A stretch of 14,169 bases of DNA, from IMG/VR virus record IMGVR_UViG_2687453466_000005; one strand, given 5' to 3'. Below, in pieces: positions 7,569 through 13,241 of this stretch. Position numbers and translations under genes: made by a program. Under the pieces are notes generated by a model, which was given only the letters and a program-made list of their open reading frames with translations, had not been told where the DNA came from and did no database searches. Positions within the stretch are counted from its first letter, which is position 1. Every line of letters starts with the position of its first letter. This stretch comes from a virus (lineage: Duplodnaviria; Heunggongvirae; Uroviricota; Caudoviricetes).

Positions 7569-8936
7569 TTAAAGCGAGCGGATCCCGTAGGACTCAATGT
7601 GATCAGACAGCGTGTCTTCTTTCTCGTACAGCATGGCTCTGCCAACCGCCATAATCAGCGCAACTGCACCATCGATTTTGTTTTCCGCCTGCTCCTTGAC
7701 GGGCTTCACCACATCATCGTTACCCGGAATGGTTTTGCCGACCACGTTGCCGATACACCAGGTCATGATGGGATTGCCGTCATGATGAAAGCGCCCCGAT
7801 TCAATCGCCGCTTCCAGCTCTTTCATCGGATCGGACATGTTGGTGTAGTTCTGAATGATGGTGACGGGGTTCAGGTCTTCATCAGCAAGGTCATGTGACA
7901 GCCCGGTCGCCCCGAAGGGGTCGATGGGTGACTCACTGACCGGGCTGATTTTGTTCGCCGCTTTGGCCTCTTCGAGGATGTAGCGATAATCCACCTCCGC
8001 ACCATCGGTAACGGTCAGAACGCCCATTTCCACCCATTTCTGAAAGCGTTCGGCTGTCCGGCGATCTTCATTTTTCTCGACGCTGTACACCGTGTCATAC
8101 GGTACCCAGAAACGCGGGGCCACACTGTAGTAATGCGTTTTACCGTCAATCTCGCGGGTATAAAGTCGCGCCATGCTGTTCATATCCAGCTTACGCGCCA
8201 GGTCAAAGGCCAGAATGCACGGCTGCCCCTCGAACTGCTCAAGGGTCAGTGATTTATCCTCGCAGCTCTGCCAGCTCACCAGGTTGAAATACGCCGAACG
8301 CGCCGACGCCCAGATATTGAGGTGTTTTGTTTTAAAGACGTTTGCCAGACGGGCGTTATTTTTCGCACGCTGCTGCTGACTTAACAAAAATTCGCGATAA
8401 ACCGACACGCCAATATTTGGATTGGCTTTTTCCAGCACCTGCGGGTCGGTCCAGTCGTCACCTTCATCAACGGTATAGATGATCCCGAACAGTTCATCGT
8501 TTGGCACCGAGCCGTTGAGCATCTCGATGACTTCCCGCCGTTTGTCGTAGCACGGCCCCTCAATGTTGTACCCGGCGGTGGTAATGGCCCACATCAGTGG
8601 CTGGCGTCGCGCCCCCATCCCGGTAAGCATCGTGGTGTAAAGCGCATCTGTGGCGTGCTCGTGATATTCATCCACCACGGCACAGTGGGGTGATGAACCA
8701 TCACCCTGGCGACGCGCCTTACGCGTTAACCAGCCTTCTGCTTCCAGCCGTGCGATAGCCGTTCTGACGGTACTCATCCCCGCGCCAATCTGACGGGCAA
8801 TGGTTTCAATTGATGGCCAGCACACACCTTCGTCATTACTGAAATCAGCCAGGCGGGCCATAATTGCCACGCTGGATAACTTCATGCCTGATGCAGCGCA
8901 ACCATCCCATACATAGCCGGTTAATTTAGTGCTCAT
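7569..8936 (-). CDS. oweE: Chimeric ORF: replication-initiator-like winged-helix N-terminus (OweE) fused in frame to the C-terminal part of a terminase large subunit (AaaE)
   Basis: 455-aa ORF; the first ~80 aa ([34 protein letters not shown]...) look like a wHTH replication/regulatory domain; the remainder (...VVDEYHEH...WAITTAGYN...ILAFDLARK...[15 protein letters not shown]...) looks like terminase ATPase-C/nuclease regions; no intact terminase N-terminus. Confidence 0.7.
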
Positions 8937-8945
8937 GACCGACCT

Positions 8946-9284
8946 CTATTTCCCTGAATTTACGACGAAACTGTTCGAGCGGGCTGAAGCATTCATGCTC
9001 ATAACCTTCGCGGAGGTAGATAACCCGTTGTGTTTCCGGCTCCCAACGAATGACTCTGACGGGCACTCCGTAGTGATCTTTGAACCAGCGGTTAACTTGT
9101 CGCAAAGGACTGTCTCCTTCTGCCGGTTGAAATCACCCACAGCCCACTCTGCAAAGCTGTGGGTTACAATTTCCCTGTCACCTGGTACATTCACTGCATA
9201 GCAATATTCCACCTTCGCTTTTCCACCCGGTACAGGAAGCGCAATCAGTTGCGAGCGACGGTAGTGTGTTGTTAAACTGTTCAT
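8946..9284 (-). CDS. ymfM: YmfM, reported SOS-inducible cell-division inhibitor of e14
   Basis: 112-aa ATG-initiated ORF; start overlaps the ymfL stop (ATGA), indicating translational coupling. Confidence 0.7.
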
Positions 9285-9850
9285 GCGTTAGTTTCTCCAC
9301 AACCAGAAGCAATCGACGCCACGACGCCCGGAGCTGCACACTCGCGGGCGTCATTACTTTCTGAAATGCAAAAAATTTTGTAGACAAGTGCTGCATGCTC
9401 CTGCAGCTTCGAAATTGAGAGATACAGCTCGTCGTTAATTGCTGTCTTCTCATGCGGTTCCACTACACCGTCTTCGATTGCTGAACGAATCTGTTTTGAA
9501 TAACTGCCGATCTGTTCAATGACTTCCAGCAGACGCTGGTTAATATCGGCGTTGTCCACATCCTCGACGTCAGGAAGAGACACAAAGACGCCATTTGCAG
9601 ACTGCGCCACAGCATCAGCAATGAAGTGAGTGCCACCAGCACGCTGTAAAACCATTGCCCATCCCAGCGGGAAAATCTGATCGCCATCTGCACGAAGGCG
9701 GTTGAATAAAGCGTTTTCTGTTACATCGAGCCAGTCAGCCGCTTCAGCGTAACCACTCGGCAACGCCGCGATAGTTTTTCTGACAGCTTTCACGTACCAC
9801 TCAGGCTGTTTTTCTATTTTCCAGTGATGCTTACCCACGATTAGCCTCAT
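9281..9850 (-). CDS. ymfL: YmfL, phage CII-like regulatory protein
   Basis: 189-aa ATG-initiated ORF immediately downstream of croE in the early leftward operon. Confidence 0.7.
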
Positions 9851-9881
9851 CGTTCTGTGGTTAAAAATTGAAAGTGTTCTG

Positions 9882-10082
9882 CTAATCTTTCGGATAGATA
9901 TCCGGTCTTAAGTCAGATTTCGTAATTGCACCTGATGTGTATTGCTCAAGTTTTTTAGCCAGCACAAAACTGGCTTTTTTATAGCCATTGAAAACCAGCC
10001 GTAAGTAGCCAGGTGTTGAGCCAACTTTTCCGGCCAACTCGCCCTGCTGTTCTTTGGTTAAAGAGTCCCAATACGCTTTCAT
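9882..10082 (-). CDS. croE: Cro-like HTH repressor CroE
   Basis: 66-aa product MKAYWDSLTKEQQGELAGKVGSTPGYLRLVFNGYKKASFVLAKKL... from the internal ATG preceded by GGAGG about 10 nt upstream; divergent from cohE. Confidence 0.7.
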   Translation of the reverse strand: MKAYWDSLTKEQQGELAGKVGSTPGYLRLVFNGYKKASFVLAKKLEQYTSGAITKSDLRPDIYPKD

Positions 10083-10085
10083 ACA

Positions 10086-10157
10086 ATATGTACCTCCGGT
10101 GTACATATTACATGATTGAAATGAACCTTCAAGATACTTGTACCTTAACGGTACAAG
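10086..10157. promoter_or_regulatory. Divergent cohE/croE promoter-operator region with two GTAC-core palindromes
   Basis: ATATGTAC-N7-GTACATAT (about 10086-10108, overlapping the croE RBS) and CTTGTACC-TTAAC-GGTACAAG (about 10137-10157, 16 bp upstream of the cohE ATG); candidate -10 TTTAAT just upstream of the cohE start suggests a short or leaderless cohE mRNA. Confidence 0.45.
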
Positions 10158-10172
10158 GGTTTTAATTTCGTT

Positions 10173-10847
10173 ATGAAAACAATCCATGACATCCGGCGGT
10201 CTAACGCCAGAAAACTGAGAGATGGTGTTGGCGGGAATTCTTCCTTTGCCACTATGATTGATCGCGAGCCAACCCAGACCAGCAGGTTTATGGGAGATGG
10301 TGCTACTAAAAATATCGGTGACAGCATGGCACGACACATCGAAAAATGTTTCGACCTGCCTGTAGGATGGCTCGATCAAGAACACCAGACAACGAACATC
10401 ACAAAAAAACCTGATGTTTCAATCACTAATAAACAAATCACATTAGTCCCTGTCATATCATGGGTACAGGCCGGAGCATGGAAAGAAGTTGGATATTCTG
10501 AGGTTGATTTGAGCACAGCAGAAACGTATCCCTGCCCTGTACCCTGTGGGGAAATGACTTATATCTTGCGGGTAATAGGTGATTCAATGATTGATGAGTA
10601 CCGCCCGGGAGACATGATTTTTGTCGATCCTGAAGTACCTGCCTGCCACGGTGACGACGTTATTGCATTGATGCACGATACAGGTGAAACCACCTTCAAA
10701 AGGTTGATAGAAGATGGGACACAGCGTTATCTCAAAGCGTTAAACCCAAACTGGCCTGAGCCTTACATTAAGATCAACGGTAATTGCTCTATAATTGGTA
10801 CTGTGATTTTCTCAGGAAAACCAAGAAGATACAAAATCAAAGCCTAA
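10173..10847 (+). CDS. cohE: CI-like prophage repressor CohE (HTH N-terminus, LexA/S24 autopeptidase C-terminus)
   Basis: 224-aa ORF; contains a candidate Ala-Gly cleavage site (VQAGAW), the Ser nucleophile motif GDSM and the Lys motif FKRL typical of LexA/CI self-cleaving repressors. Confidence 0.85.
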   Translation: MKTIHDIRRSNARKLRDGVGGNSSFATMIDREPTQTSRFMGDGATKNIGDSMARHIEKCFDLPVGWLDQEHQTTNITKKPDVSITNKQITLVPVISWVQAGAWKEVGYSEVDLSTAETYPCPVPCGEMTYILRVIGDSMIDEYRPGDMIFVDPEVPACHGDDVIALMHDTGETTFKRLIEDGTQRYLKALNPNWPEPYIKINGNCSIIGTVIFSGKPRRYKIKA

Positions 10848-10861
10848 TCAATGTTTATGAA

Positions 10862-10882
10862 CCTGCTTCGGCAGGTTTTTTT
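10862..10882 (+). terminator. Rho-independent terminator after cohE
   Basis: CCTGC-TTCG-GCAGG hairpin followed by a run of seven T, 15 nt after the cohE stop. Confidence 0.7.
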
Positions 10883-10886
10883 ATAC

Positions 10887-10915
10887 TTGACAATGTACCT
10901 TTGAGATACATAATG
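10887..10915 (+). promoter_or_regulatory. Candidate sigma70 promoter for ymfJ, carrying two direct ATGTACC motifs
   Basis: TTGACA at 10887-10892, CATAAT/ATAATG about 16-17 bp downstream; the spacer and -10 contain ATGTACC twice, the same core as the cohE/croE palindromes. Confidence 0.45.
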
Positions 10916-11021
10916 TACCCAAGAGAAACAACAAACAGGCAGGACGCCCACGAAGTAGCCCGCCCGGTACGTACGAAGACCGGGATGATTCGTTAGCGGA
11001 TGATTTCAGTGGAGAGAATAG

Positions 11022-11330
11022 ATGAATGAGCAGAATTTGAAGCATGTGATCGCATTGTTGCTGGAAGACGCTAAACGTTTGCAGCAGATAGAGCCAAATG
11101 CAGGCACTGAGGCCCGCATTTTGTTAGCAAAACAGGCATTAAAGACTTGCGGGGCGCAAGCCCCTGGTCGAACCGAGTTCATGAATTTCATGGCTAACAC
11201 ACTCACCCCTCTGCCATGCAATGGAGAGAAGGTGAGCCGTGTTTATCACGACACAATGGTTAAGGCTTTAAGAATCGAGCTTGATGGGCTTAGGCGTAAG
11301 ATCGTAATGAACGAAATCGTTACCAACTAA
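11022..11330 (+). CDS. ymfJ: Uncharacterised protein YmfJ
   Basis: 102-aa ATG-initiated ORF with GGAGAG RBS; its 3' end overlaps the 3' end of convergent ymfI by about 63 nt. Confidence 0.7.
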   Translation: MNEQNLKHVIALLLEDAKRLQQIEPNAGTEARILLAKQALKTCGAQAPGRTEFMNFMANTLTPLPCNGEKVSRVYHDTMVKALRIELDGLRRKIVMNEIVTN

Positions 11331-11609
11331 GGAAGCAGACGGAAGTAAGCATGCGCTTTGTTCAAATTTACAGACAAATATATTTGCGTCAACACCGGCA
11401 CTGTTAGCAATTGAAAATGTTTGATCAAGGATTTGTTGGCAGTTCATTGTACTTTTGAGGATATATCCCTCTGGAATCAGTCTGCAGCAGCTATCGTCAG
11501 ACTCTTTAACTGTTTTCTGGTACAGAAAGTTAAGCATTAATTCTTCAAATTTTTTGGTCTGTTCGGCTGTGTCTTCAAATAGACGAACGTGAACATAAAA
11601 CTGGTTCAT
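11268..11609 (-). CDS. ymfI: Uncharacterised protein YmfI
   Basis: 113-aa product from the internal ATG (MNQFYVHVRLFED...) preceded by AAGGAAA about 7 nt upstream; the track ORF extends 15 codons further 5'. Confidence 0.65.
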   Translation of the reverse strand: MNQFYVHVRLFEDTAEQTKKFEELMLNFLYQKTVKESDDSCCRLIPEGYILKSTMNCQQILDQTFSIANSAGVDANIFVCKFEQSACLLPSASLVGNDFVHYDLTPKPIKLDS

Positions 11610-11865
11610 TAAGTTTCCTTGCTTGCTGGCTGTGTGAGAACTCCAGCATACCACCGAGCCTGAAGTGGTGAAAAGACAGGCACATAACAGCTAAGTATTT
11701 TCAACCAGAGAGAATCCTTAGCGTTGTGGTGAATGCGGCTCAGCGCACGCGGGTTAAGGTTGAGGCTGACAATCGACCTTCTGTGGATACCCACCCGCCT
11801 GGTGTGCAACCTTCGCCAGGCACCGGGGGCACCCGACACCACAACTTTATGCTGTGTGTAGTCTT

Positions 11866-12000
11866 GGCGGTACCAGTTTTTTCCTTAGTCCTTTCTGGTA
11901 CCGCCCTTTTTACAAAACAGAGAAGAGTATCCCCGGATGACGGGTTAATAACCCGACCCATCCTGATAGCTGTGGCCACAGGTGCTCTTCTCTGTTTTGT
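11866..12000. repeat. Cluster of perfect inverted repeats in the ymfI/xisE divergent intergenic region (structured RNA or protein-binding element of unknown function)
   Basis: GGCGGTACCAG-N18-CTGGTACCGCC (11866-11905) followed by CTTTTT; ACAAAACAGAGAAGAG-N57-CTCTTCTCTGTTTTGT (11912-12000) enclosing palindromes CGGGTTAaTAACCCG (11941-11955) and CTGTGGCCACAG (11970-11981). Confidence 0.6.
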
Positions 12001-12073
12001 GGAGAAACTAACCGACCGTGCAGGGTCGATATGCTGAGACTAAGCAGTTAGTGTAGTAATAAGGTGATCGCAT

Positions 12074-12319
12074 ATGCTTCAAATGTTAACTCTTGAAGAA
12101 TGGGCTGCTGAAAAATACAGAAGTAATCCTCCAAGTGTGTCCACATTGCGTCGTTATGCTAAGCAGAATTTATTTTGTCCACCGGCCATGAAACAAGGCC
12201 GGTTATGGCGAGTGCGTGAGGACGCCGAGTTAGTTGGGGAGTTGGTAACACCTGTAATCAAGAAAAATGACTCATTACTTTTGCAACGGATTTTGAGTAA
12301 TGGCAGCCAGACCGCGTAA
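12074..12319 (+). CDS. xisE: Excisionase XisE (small HTH DNA-binding protein)
   Basis: 81-aa ORF with AAGGTGA RBS; overlaps the intE start by 20 nt. Confidence 0.75.
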   Translation: MLQMLTLEEWAAEKYRSNPPSVSTLRRYAKQNLFCPPAMKQGRLWRVREDAELVGELVTPVIKKNDSLLLQRILSNGSQTA

Positions 12320-13241
12320 GAATAATGTTTCAGTCCCTAACTTATATCCGCTTTATAGTAGGAAGGTAAATAAAGTCTATTGGCGGTATAAGCATCCAGT
12401 GACAGGAAAATTCCATGCTTTGGGAACAAACGAAGCTGAAGCTATCGCTATTGCCACTGAGGCCAACACTCGCCTGGCTGAACAAAGAACCCGGCAGATT
12501 CTGGCTATCAGTGACAGGATCGCAACCAGCAAAGGAAAGGCTATCACAACGTCAACCTGGTTAGATCGCTATCAAGCGATCCAGGATGACAGGCTTAAAA
12601 GTGGTGATATAAGACTCAACACCTATAAACAAAAAGCTAAACCAGTATCCTTGCTCAGAGAACGAGCAGGAATGAAGTTGATCTCAGCCGTTGATGTCAG
12701 AGATATAGCACAATTGCTTGATGAGTATATCGCCGCTGGGCGGCCAAGAATGGCACAAGTAGTTCGCTCCGTCCTGATTGATGTTTTCAAAGAGGCGCAG
12801 CACTACGGAGAAGTACCTCCTGGCTATAACCCAGCATTAGCCACTAAACAACCAAGAAGAAAAATTACCCGACAACGGCTGAGCCTTGAAGAATGGAAAA
12901 AAATCTTCGATATCGCAGACGCTACTCATCGTTACATGGGAAATGCCATGCTGTTAGCGCTGGTTACTGGTCAGCGGTTAGGTGATATTTCGCGTATGAA
13001 ATTTAGCGATATTTGGGATGATCATCTTCATGTCATTCAGGAAAAGACCGGGAGCAAAATCGCAATTCCTCTTTCTCTTCGCCTCAATGCGATTAACTGG
13101 AGTTTACGCGATGTAGTAGCCCGCTGCCGTGACTATGCAGTCAGTGCATACTTAGTGCATTTTTTTCGTTCAACTTCACAAGCAGAGCGCGGAGCGCAGG
13201 TTAAAGCCAATACATTGACGATGAATTTTGATAAAAACTAA
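12300..13241 (+). CDS. intE: Lambda-family tyrosine integrase IntE, apparently C-terminally truncated (313 aa; ends before the box II HxxR / His / Tyr catalytic motifs)
   Basis: N-terminal and core-binding regions plus the box I Arg (LVTGQRLGD) and the Lys (QEKTGSKIAIP) are present, but the ORF stops 64 aa after that Lys; all three forward frames have stops within about 55 nt downstream. Confidence 0.75.
   Translation: MAARPRKNNVSVPNLYPLYSRKVNKVYWRYKHPVTGKFHALGTNEAEAIAIATEANTRLAEQRTRQILAISDRIATSKGKAITTSTWLDRYQAIQDDRLKSGDIRLNTYKQKAKPVSLLRERAGMKLISAVDVRDIAQLLDEYIAAGRPRMAQVVRSVLIDVFKEAQHYGEVPPGYNPALATKQPRRKITRQRLSLEEWKKIFDIADATHRYMGNAMLLALVTGQRLGDISRMKFSDIWDDHLHVIQEKTGSKIAIPLSLRLNAINWSLRDVVARCRDYAVSAYLVHFFRSTSQAERGAQVKANTLTMNFDKN

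Follow-up and report, generated by a model that had tools for sequence, protein, structure and literature searches.

How a single uninterrupted reading frame came to begin as a phage replication initiator and to end as the large subunit of a packaging terminase is the question raised by this locus. It lies in a window of 14,169 nucleotides, the whole stretch of DNA analysed here, and the original prediction regarded it as a 455-residue protein in which the two parts had been joined by a deletion that left the frame open. Such an ORF is present in both the ORF list and the translation, running from ATG to stop through 455 codons plus the stop codon on the minus strand, an orientation that the prediction had not given. 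A plus-strand reading of 7569-8936 was rejected, its translation being riddled with stops. The protein motifs on which attention had been drawn are all found in the minus-strand translation: VVDEYHEH at residues 87-94, WAITTAGYN at 116-124, ILAFDLARK at 241-249 and a 13-residue motif at 420-432.

The identity of the locus is provided by comparison with Escherichia coli K-12. In a megablast search of 5,426 complete E. coli genomes, positions 7300-9300 of the window (2,001 nt) gave 100 % matches to strains MG1655, C600 and J53. Over these 2,001 nt, and over a 120-nt junction probe as well, the nucleotide identity of ymfN to NC_000913.3 1204170-1205537 is 100 %, and the longer interval 5301-13229 is 100 % identical to prophage e14 of MG1655, the window running in reverse relative to NC_000913.3. 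In MG1655 the order of e14 is icd', mcrA, pinE, tail-fibre genes, ymfQ, a baseplate J fragment, a portal fragment, ymfR, a terminase fragment, a helix-turn-helix (HTH) fragment, DUF4222, ymfL, ymfT, ymfK, ymfJ, ymfI, ymfH, xisE, intE and lit. When the annotated MG1655 region was aligned to the window, the context of the ORF matched that of e14, with ymfK-ymfT-ymfL-ymfM upstream and ymfR-beeE-jayE-ymfQ downstream.

The annotations of this gene already describe a composite. In NC_000913.3 the product of b1149 is named 'chimeric replication protein/phage terminase YmfN', and two pseudogene features, oweE (b4692, 234 nt) and aaaE (b4693, 1,137 nt), cover ymfN with a 3-nt overlap; in other K-12 assemblies PGAP names the halves 'helix-turn-helix domain-containing protein, missing C-terminus' and 'terminase large subunit, missing N-terminus'. 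The gene of the window is thus the same as that of MG1655, with the same neighbours and the same division at 78 codons with a 3-nt overlap, and without any difference inside the ORF, since the private changes of this copy of e14 all fall outside it. The ORF is almost certainly ymfN of the defective K-12 prophage e14, and a deletion scar rather than a designed two-domain protein; nothing in the analysis contradicts this reading. The features discussed below are collected in Table 1.

Table 1. Position of ymfN, its parts and associated features in the analysed window.
Feature	Position	Strand	Basis
Chimeric ORF ymfN (b1149)	7569..8936	minus	ORF list, translation, 100 % identity to MG1655, NC_000913.3 product name
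oweE' part, codons 1-78 of O-like initiator gene (winged helix-turn-helix)	8703..8936	minus	HTH_36, PHROGs, identity
aaaE' part, codons 200-577 plus stop of terminase large subunit gene	7569..8705	minus	A27 TerL identity, PHROG 9, PGAP
Junction, codon 78 (GGT, Gly), 3-nt microhomology common to both parent genes	8703..8705	minus	megablast breaks, parent sequences
Inverted repeat GGGTGATG-GTT-CATCACCC	8688..8706	minus (coding strand)	sequence and repeat-finding script
VVDEYHEH, Walker B region of truncated ATPase domain, residues 87-94	8655..8678	minus	position and TerL_ATPase match
Complete terminase nuclease domain (RNase-H-like), residues 146-436	7629..8501	minus	PF20441
Shine-Dalgarno-like AGAGG, 6 nt upstream of ATG, overlapping the ymfM stop codon	8943..8947	minus	upstream sequence
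Second deletion scar beeE/jayE	6902-7375, junction 6968-6971	minus	4-nt overlap, Pfam, A27 comparison

The composite nature of the protein is evident from profile searches. Pfam divides YmfN between HTH_36 on one side and TerL_ATPase plus TerL_nuclease on the other, as had been described from the sequence, and neither Pfam nor NCBIfam holds a single family spanning the whole protein (NCBIfam gave sub-threshold HTH matches only). As there is no whole-protein model and the two parts belong to unrelated Pfam families, a contiguous architecture, which would have spoken against a fusion, can be rejected.

The N-terminal part had been assigned to a winged-helix initiator domain of about 80 residues. 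The assignment holds, and the boundary falls at codon 78. HTH_36 matches residues 23-70 (E 7e-11), whereas residues 1-78 match PHROG 11896, 'primosomal protein' (E 3e-50), and PHROG 391, 'replication initiation O-like' (E 8e-32), the latter over profile positions 1-74 of 298. The match of YmfN ends at residue 77-78, whereas the initiator of the intact relative covers all 298 positions of PHROG 391. Furthermore, residues 1-78 are identical (78/78) to the start of an intact 313-residue O-like initiator of related prophages, and the 234 nt of this part show no differences from the intact gene of strain A27. YmfN therefore has the N-terminal winged helix-turn-helix of an O-like initiator and lacks the C-terminal domain of the full-length protein.

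The rest of the protein is terminase. The predicted kinship stands, with both ATPase and nuclease matches, and the terminase part begins at codon 78 and not near residues 80-85. Residues 78-455 of YmfN share 377 of 378 amino acids with residues 200-577 of the 577-residue large subunit (TerL) of A27, and PHROG 9, 'terminase large subunit', matches residues 79-455 (E 2e-131). The two domains were unequally affected: TerL_ATPase (PF03354) is matched at residues 78-134 over profile positions 118-174 of 178 only (E 4e-9), and TerL_nuclease (PF20441) at residues 146-436 over positions 4-284 of 286 (E 3e-34). Walker A (PRKNGKS) occupies residues 116-122 of the intact terminase, upstream of the breakpoint at residue 200, and is lost in YmfN; Walker B (VVDE, residues 87-90) is kept and is identical to that of the intact relative. 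The gene is also isolated from its usual partners, with ymfM upstream in place of a small subunit gene and a 136-codon portal fragment downstream in place of a complete portal gene, while the intact relatives possess a P27-family small terminase subunit and a full-length portal gene.

The junction was mapped by megablast with a 701-nt probe spanning it, which matches 2,242 genomes, 283 of them across the whole junction. The query breaks at 398 on one side and at 392/396 on the other, which correspond to window positions 8703-8705. Among the matches listed, all others that reach the junction from the initiator side end at 8703, and those from the terminase side begin at 8705, or at 8709 in one genome. 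The parent sequences meet here as CAGGGT|AACCGC in the initiator and CCCGGT|GATGGT in the terminase, or, in a wider context, as CGTCGCCAGGGT|AACCGCAATG and GGTAACCCCGGT|GATGGTTCATCACCCC, respectively; the e14 sequence across the junction (28 nt) is CGTCGCCAGGGTGATGGTTCATCACCCC. The shared GGT specifies residue 78 of the initiator and residue 200 of the terminase, and because both triplets stand in the same codon phase, a one-in-three chance, the reading frame stayed open.

What lay between the two genes can be seen in two intact relatives, the prophages of strains A27 (NZ_CP028748.1) and AH02 (NZ_CP081701.1). The A27 prophage, which is apparently complete, contains ymfK, ymfT, ymfL, DUF4222, the 313-residue HTH protein, PerC-like, methyltransferase, LexA-like, RusA, KilA-N, DUF968, Q, holin, lysozyme, spanin and HNH genes, the P27-family small terminase subunit, the 577-residue terminase large subunit, ymfR, portal, protease, capsid and further genes. 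In AH02, the initiator protein is identical and the terminase segment shows 98.9 % DNA identity. Of the immunity and early region of e14, A27 shares ymfK, ymfT, ymfL and DUF4222, and AH02 shares ymfL and DUF4222; both have in common with it the identical O-like initiator N-terminus, the terminase large subunit, ymfR, portal and baseplate J. Both are integrated elsewhere than e14, the A27 prophage adjoining a tRNA-Thr gene and not icd. The two parent genes are 10,579 bp apart in A27 and 10,198 bp apart in AH02, and the alignment to these prophages places the endpoints at initiator codon 78 and terminase codon 200. The 10.2-10.6 kb that both retain between these codons is missing from e14. The original claims of a scar left in an open frame, and of the loss of the terminase N-terminus together with the intervening genes, are in this way borne out against two intact relatives. 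Both comparators are mosaic relatives of e14 and neither is its direct ancestor, so that the extent and gene content of the deletion are estimates.

Since the parent genes reside in one prophage, in the same orientation and with a conserved order of the genes around them, the simplest origin of ymfN is a single internal deletion. A recombination between two co-resident prophages would also join the two genes, and the unequal identity of the sides (99.2-100 % on the left of the comparators, against 97.2 % on the right in A27 and 98.9 % in AH02) could be taken as a mark of mosaic ancestry. Lambdoid mosaicism explains this inequality without a second element, and the flanks in A27 and AH02 are those of e14, with ymfL-DUF4222-initiator on one side and terminase-ymfR-portal on the other. 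In addition, e14 carries a second scar of the same kind 1.7 kb away, so that an origin from two prophages seems very unlikely.

This second scar, beeE/jayE, joins the first 136 codons of the portal gene (Phage_portal profile positions 2-92 of 321) to a baseplate J gene deprived of its first ~90 codons. Compared to A27, ~12.7 kb are missing, including protease, capsid, connectors, sheath, tube, tape measure and baseplate; both A27 and AH02 keep 12.7 kb between portal and baseplate J. Like ymfN, beeE/jayE is an internal deletion of e14, here with an overlap of 4 nt. Unlike ymfN, it is joined out of frame, the portal frame continuing for 21 codons before a stop, and no long chimeric ORF resulted.

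Additionally, a 7-nt sequence, GGTAACC, stands beside both breakpoints in A27 and AH02 (30966-30972 and 20396-20402 of locus L002, with equivalents in L006). It was considered as a crossover site and rejected, because AACC is absent at the e14 junction, which places the join at GGT. Its presence may be due to chance, or may be the trace of a two-step event in which a join at GGTAACC was followed by a 9-nt slippage.

Inside the intact A27 initiator gene, we found at least six copies of GTCAAAATCTGAC with a spacing of 15 bp (L002 20467-20572), an array that begins 69 bp beyond the e14 breakpoint; in the whole of that locus, eight matches were observed against 1.1 expected. A search of the window for the same iteron, allowing up to two mismatches, returned no matches. 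In phage lambda, the origin of replication lies within gene O, and the N-terminal DNA-binding domain of the O protein recognises iterons in its own gene. The intact relative has a like layout, with its 15-bp-period array inside the initiator gene, and by analogy with ori-lambda the array is the presumptive origin of that phage. If so, the deletion would have removed the origin together with the C-terminal domain of the initiator. Compared to lambda O, YmfN keeps only the DNA-binding end, and its Pfam match is the generic HTH_36 and not a lambda-O-specific model. With the iterons and the C-terminal domain deleted, YmfN cannot be an initiator.

These findings allow us to propose how ymfN may have arisen. 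The ancestor of e14 would have been a temperate phage of ~38 kb, with a contractile tail and head genes of the HK97 type. One event, which we infer to have been illegitimate recombination at the shared GGT, would have joined codon 78 of the O-like initiator gene to codon 200 of the terminase large-subunit gene. The ~10 kb lost would comprise the C-terminal two thirds of the initiator with its iteron array, the genes for the PerC-like regulator, methyltransferase, RusA, KilA-N and Q antiterminator, the lysis cassette, HNH and the small terminase subunit. Of the large subunit, the first 199 residues would have gone as well, and Walker A with them. The chimera keeps the ribosome-binding site and the start codon of the initiator gene.

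An inverted repeat had been pointed out near the apparent junction, at about 8690-8707 and with a loop of four nucleotides. The repeat exists and abuts the junction, in a slightly different position (Table 1) and form: GGGTGATG-GTT-CATCACCC has an 8-bp stem and a 3-nt loop, and starts one base before the junction codon GGT. The predicted hairpin energy is -12.1 kcal/mol in e14, compared to -8.9 kcal/mol for the 7-bp stem of the intact terminase gene, values computed with RNA parameters that serve as a rough guide. That the repeat begins at the junction triplet might suggest a functional element, such as a protein binding site, a terminator or a recombination site, that directed the rearrangement, and a breakpoint placed at random has, by a rough and post hoc estimate, a chance well below 1 % of meeting the edge of a hairpin of this kind, of which 14 kb hold ~12. 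The 7-bp version is, on the other hand, native terminase coding sequence in A27 and AH02, the eighth pair having been created by the fusion, and no T-run follows the repeat. Moreover, the window contains 14 perfect 7-bp stems with loops of 3-8 nt against 4.9 +/- 2.6 in mononucleotide shuffles, such that the repeat by itself is not distinctive. A directing role is accordingly improbable; at most, and this too we rate low, the repeat could have acted passively, as a site prone to breakage or to stalling of the polymerase.

The distribution of the junction points to a recent event. A probe of 120 nt centred on it, used with an E-value cutoff that only full-length matches pass, detects it in 283 of 5,426 complete E. 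coli genomes, in 281 of them with at least 99 % identity. Among the 60 matches listed, the junction is 100 % identical in 59, and nearly all of the genomes are by name or size those of K-12-type laboratory strains or recipients, with MG1655, W3110, BW25113, C600, J53, DH5a and AB1157 among the carriers. Strain BS-04 provides one of the two matches below 99 % (97.5 %); it carries a complete e14 at icd, arranged as in the others and with frameshifts in several genes, and was rejected as an independent natural lineage, for it looks K-12-like, with some assembly noise or a slight divergence. An unfused terminase segment occurs in ~1,100 further genomes, and most of the other ~1,950 genomes that match the 701-nt probe are explained by the initiator side. 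Given the identity of the junction, its restriction to K-12 and the wide occurrence of the unfused parent genes, the fusion appears to be a recent, lineage-specific event, apparently confined to K-12. Compared to A27, the terminase part has 34 synonymous and one non-synonymous codon changes; these predate the fusion and reflect selection in phage lineages, so they are uninformative on any selection acting on the fusion itself.

With respect to expression, the sequence upstream of the gene, AAATAGAGGTCGGTC followed by ATG, holds a Shine-Dalgarno-like motif (Table 1), and the start region is the native start of the O-like gene in the intact relatives. ymfN belongs to the early rightward operon ymfT/croE-ymfL-ymfM-ymfN, thought to be under the cI-like repressor YmfK/CohE, and such control would lead to its transcription after DNA damage. 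In line with this idea, PMC1764438 reports that the ymfN transcript peaks with norfloxacin, and a preprint (bioRxiv 10.1101/2020.11.19.390815) suggests cohE as the repressor of SOS-inducible e14 genes; the ymfN transcript has also been measured by qRT-PCR (PMC5811629). The passages on ymfN covered from the literature contain no evidence for a function of YmfN itself.

Most probably, YmfN is inert. Its DNA-binding domain is left without its partner domain and without iterons, its ATPase is cut through the middle of the fold, and its nuclease domain lacks the small subunit, portal and capsid with which it would act. As a caveat, the ORF is intact and transcribed and retains a complete nuclease domain. 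These same features, together with the native ribosome-binding site, lend some appeal to the notion that the chimera is a functional, retained protein, either an HTH-tethered nuclease induced by DNA damage or a transcription factor, with a part in e14 toxicity, defence or regulation. In this regard, PMC1764438 describes, besides the norfloxacin-induced transcript, a network inference that treats YmfN as a putative regulator and finds a motif common to its predicted targets, and PMC3614548 links an e14 region including ymfM-N to cell death. The division-inhibition phenotype of the region, an SOS-linked division block, is assigned to ymfM in the preprint cited above (bioRxiv 10.1101/2020.11.19.390815), and the co-expression 'targets' in PMC1764438 are enriched for prophage genes, which fits shared control and not regulation by YmfN.

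The protein and its distribution argue in the same direction. The ATPase fold survives only from profile position 118 of 178 onwards, without Walker A, and the iterons, the presumptive targets of the HTH domain, were deleted; and since the junction is seen in the K-12 lineage only and without divergence, there is no evolutionary signal of retention. A retained function thus seems highly improbable, and we give just as little credit to the narrower proposal that the chimera is made after DNA damage with some residual activity, for instance DNA cutting that contributes to e14-linked toxicity or to phage exclusion in K-12. In this proposal, the intact nuclease domain, now tied to a winged-helix domain and freed from ATPase and small-subunit control, would do the cutting.

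Several features of this copy of e14 outside ymfN deserve mention. Immediately upstream, two annotated minus-strand genes overlap in different frames, at 8946-9284 and 8926-9105: ymfM encodes 112 residues without a Pfam match and is a reported cell-division inhibitor, and its partner, a 59-residue TTG-start ORF with a strong DUF4222 match (E 9e-19), overlaps the first 11 nt of ymfN. At 3483-5321 the Pin-invertible P segment, which contains tail-fibre C-termini and tfa genes, is inverted with respect to the MG1655 assembly NZ_CP032667.1, with alignment blocks that overlap by 21 nt at each end. At 13229/13230, 242 bp of MG1655 are absent, corresponding to approximately the final 65 codons of intE plus the next 43 nt; this deletion junction was not found in any of the 5,426 complete E. 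coli genomes, so that it is private to the source strain or else an artefact in the sequence itself. mcrA, frameshifted by the loss of 1 bp at 2237, is split into ORFs at 1928-2182 and 2215-2760, a change for which the complete genomes gave no exact match (best 99.2 %), and a run of G8 near 1019 is shortened to G7. Finally, a partial isocitrate dehydrogenase pseudogene at 1530-1697 marks the prophage end; it is the 3' end of icd, whose duplication at the attachment site of e14 is known.

The original reading is correct, yet the chimera it describes was already known, from the literature since 2004 and from the K-12 reference annotation. According to PMC3614548, an analysis of e14 by Mehta et al. 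(2004) had described the fusion, and PMC6018989 notes the re-annotation of the locus as oweE plus aaaE. Our analysis adds to that knowledge the confirmation of the junction at base level, as a single shared GGT codon; an estimate of the lost DNA, which places the presumptive iteron origin just past the breakpoint; the recognition of the inverted repeat as pre-existing terminase coding sequence; and the apparent confinement of the junction to the K-12 lineage.

Beyond correct annotation, the importance of the finding is slight. It carries a warning for regulatory-network studies, in which it is ill-advised to treat YmfN as a transcription factor, as has been done in PMC5811629 and PMC1764438. 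For the biology of e14, ymfN offers a clean textbook case of prophage decay yielding an open chimeric frame.
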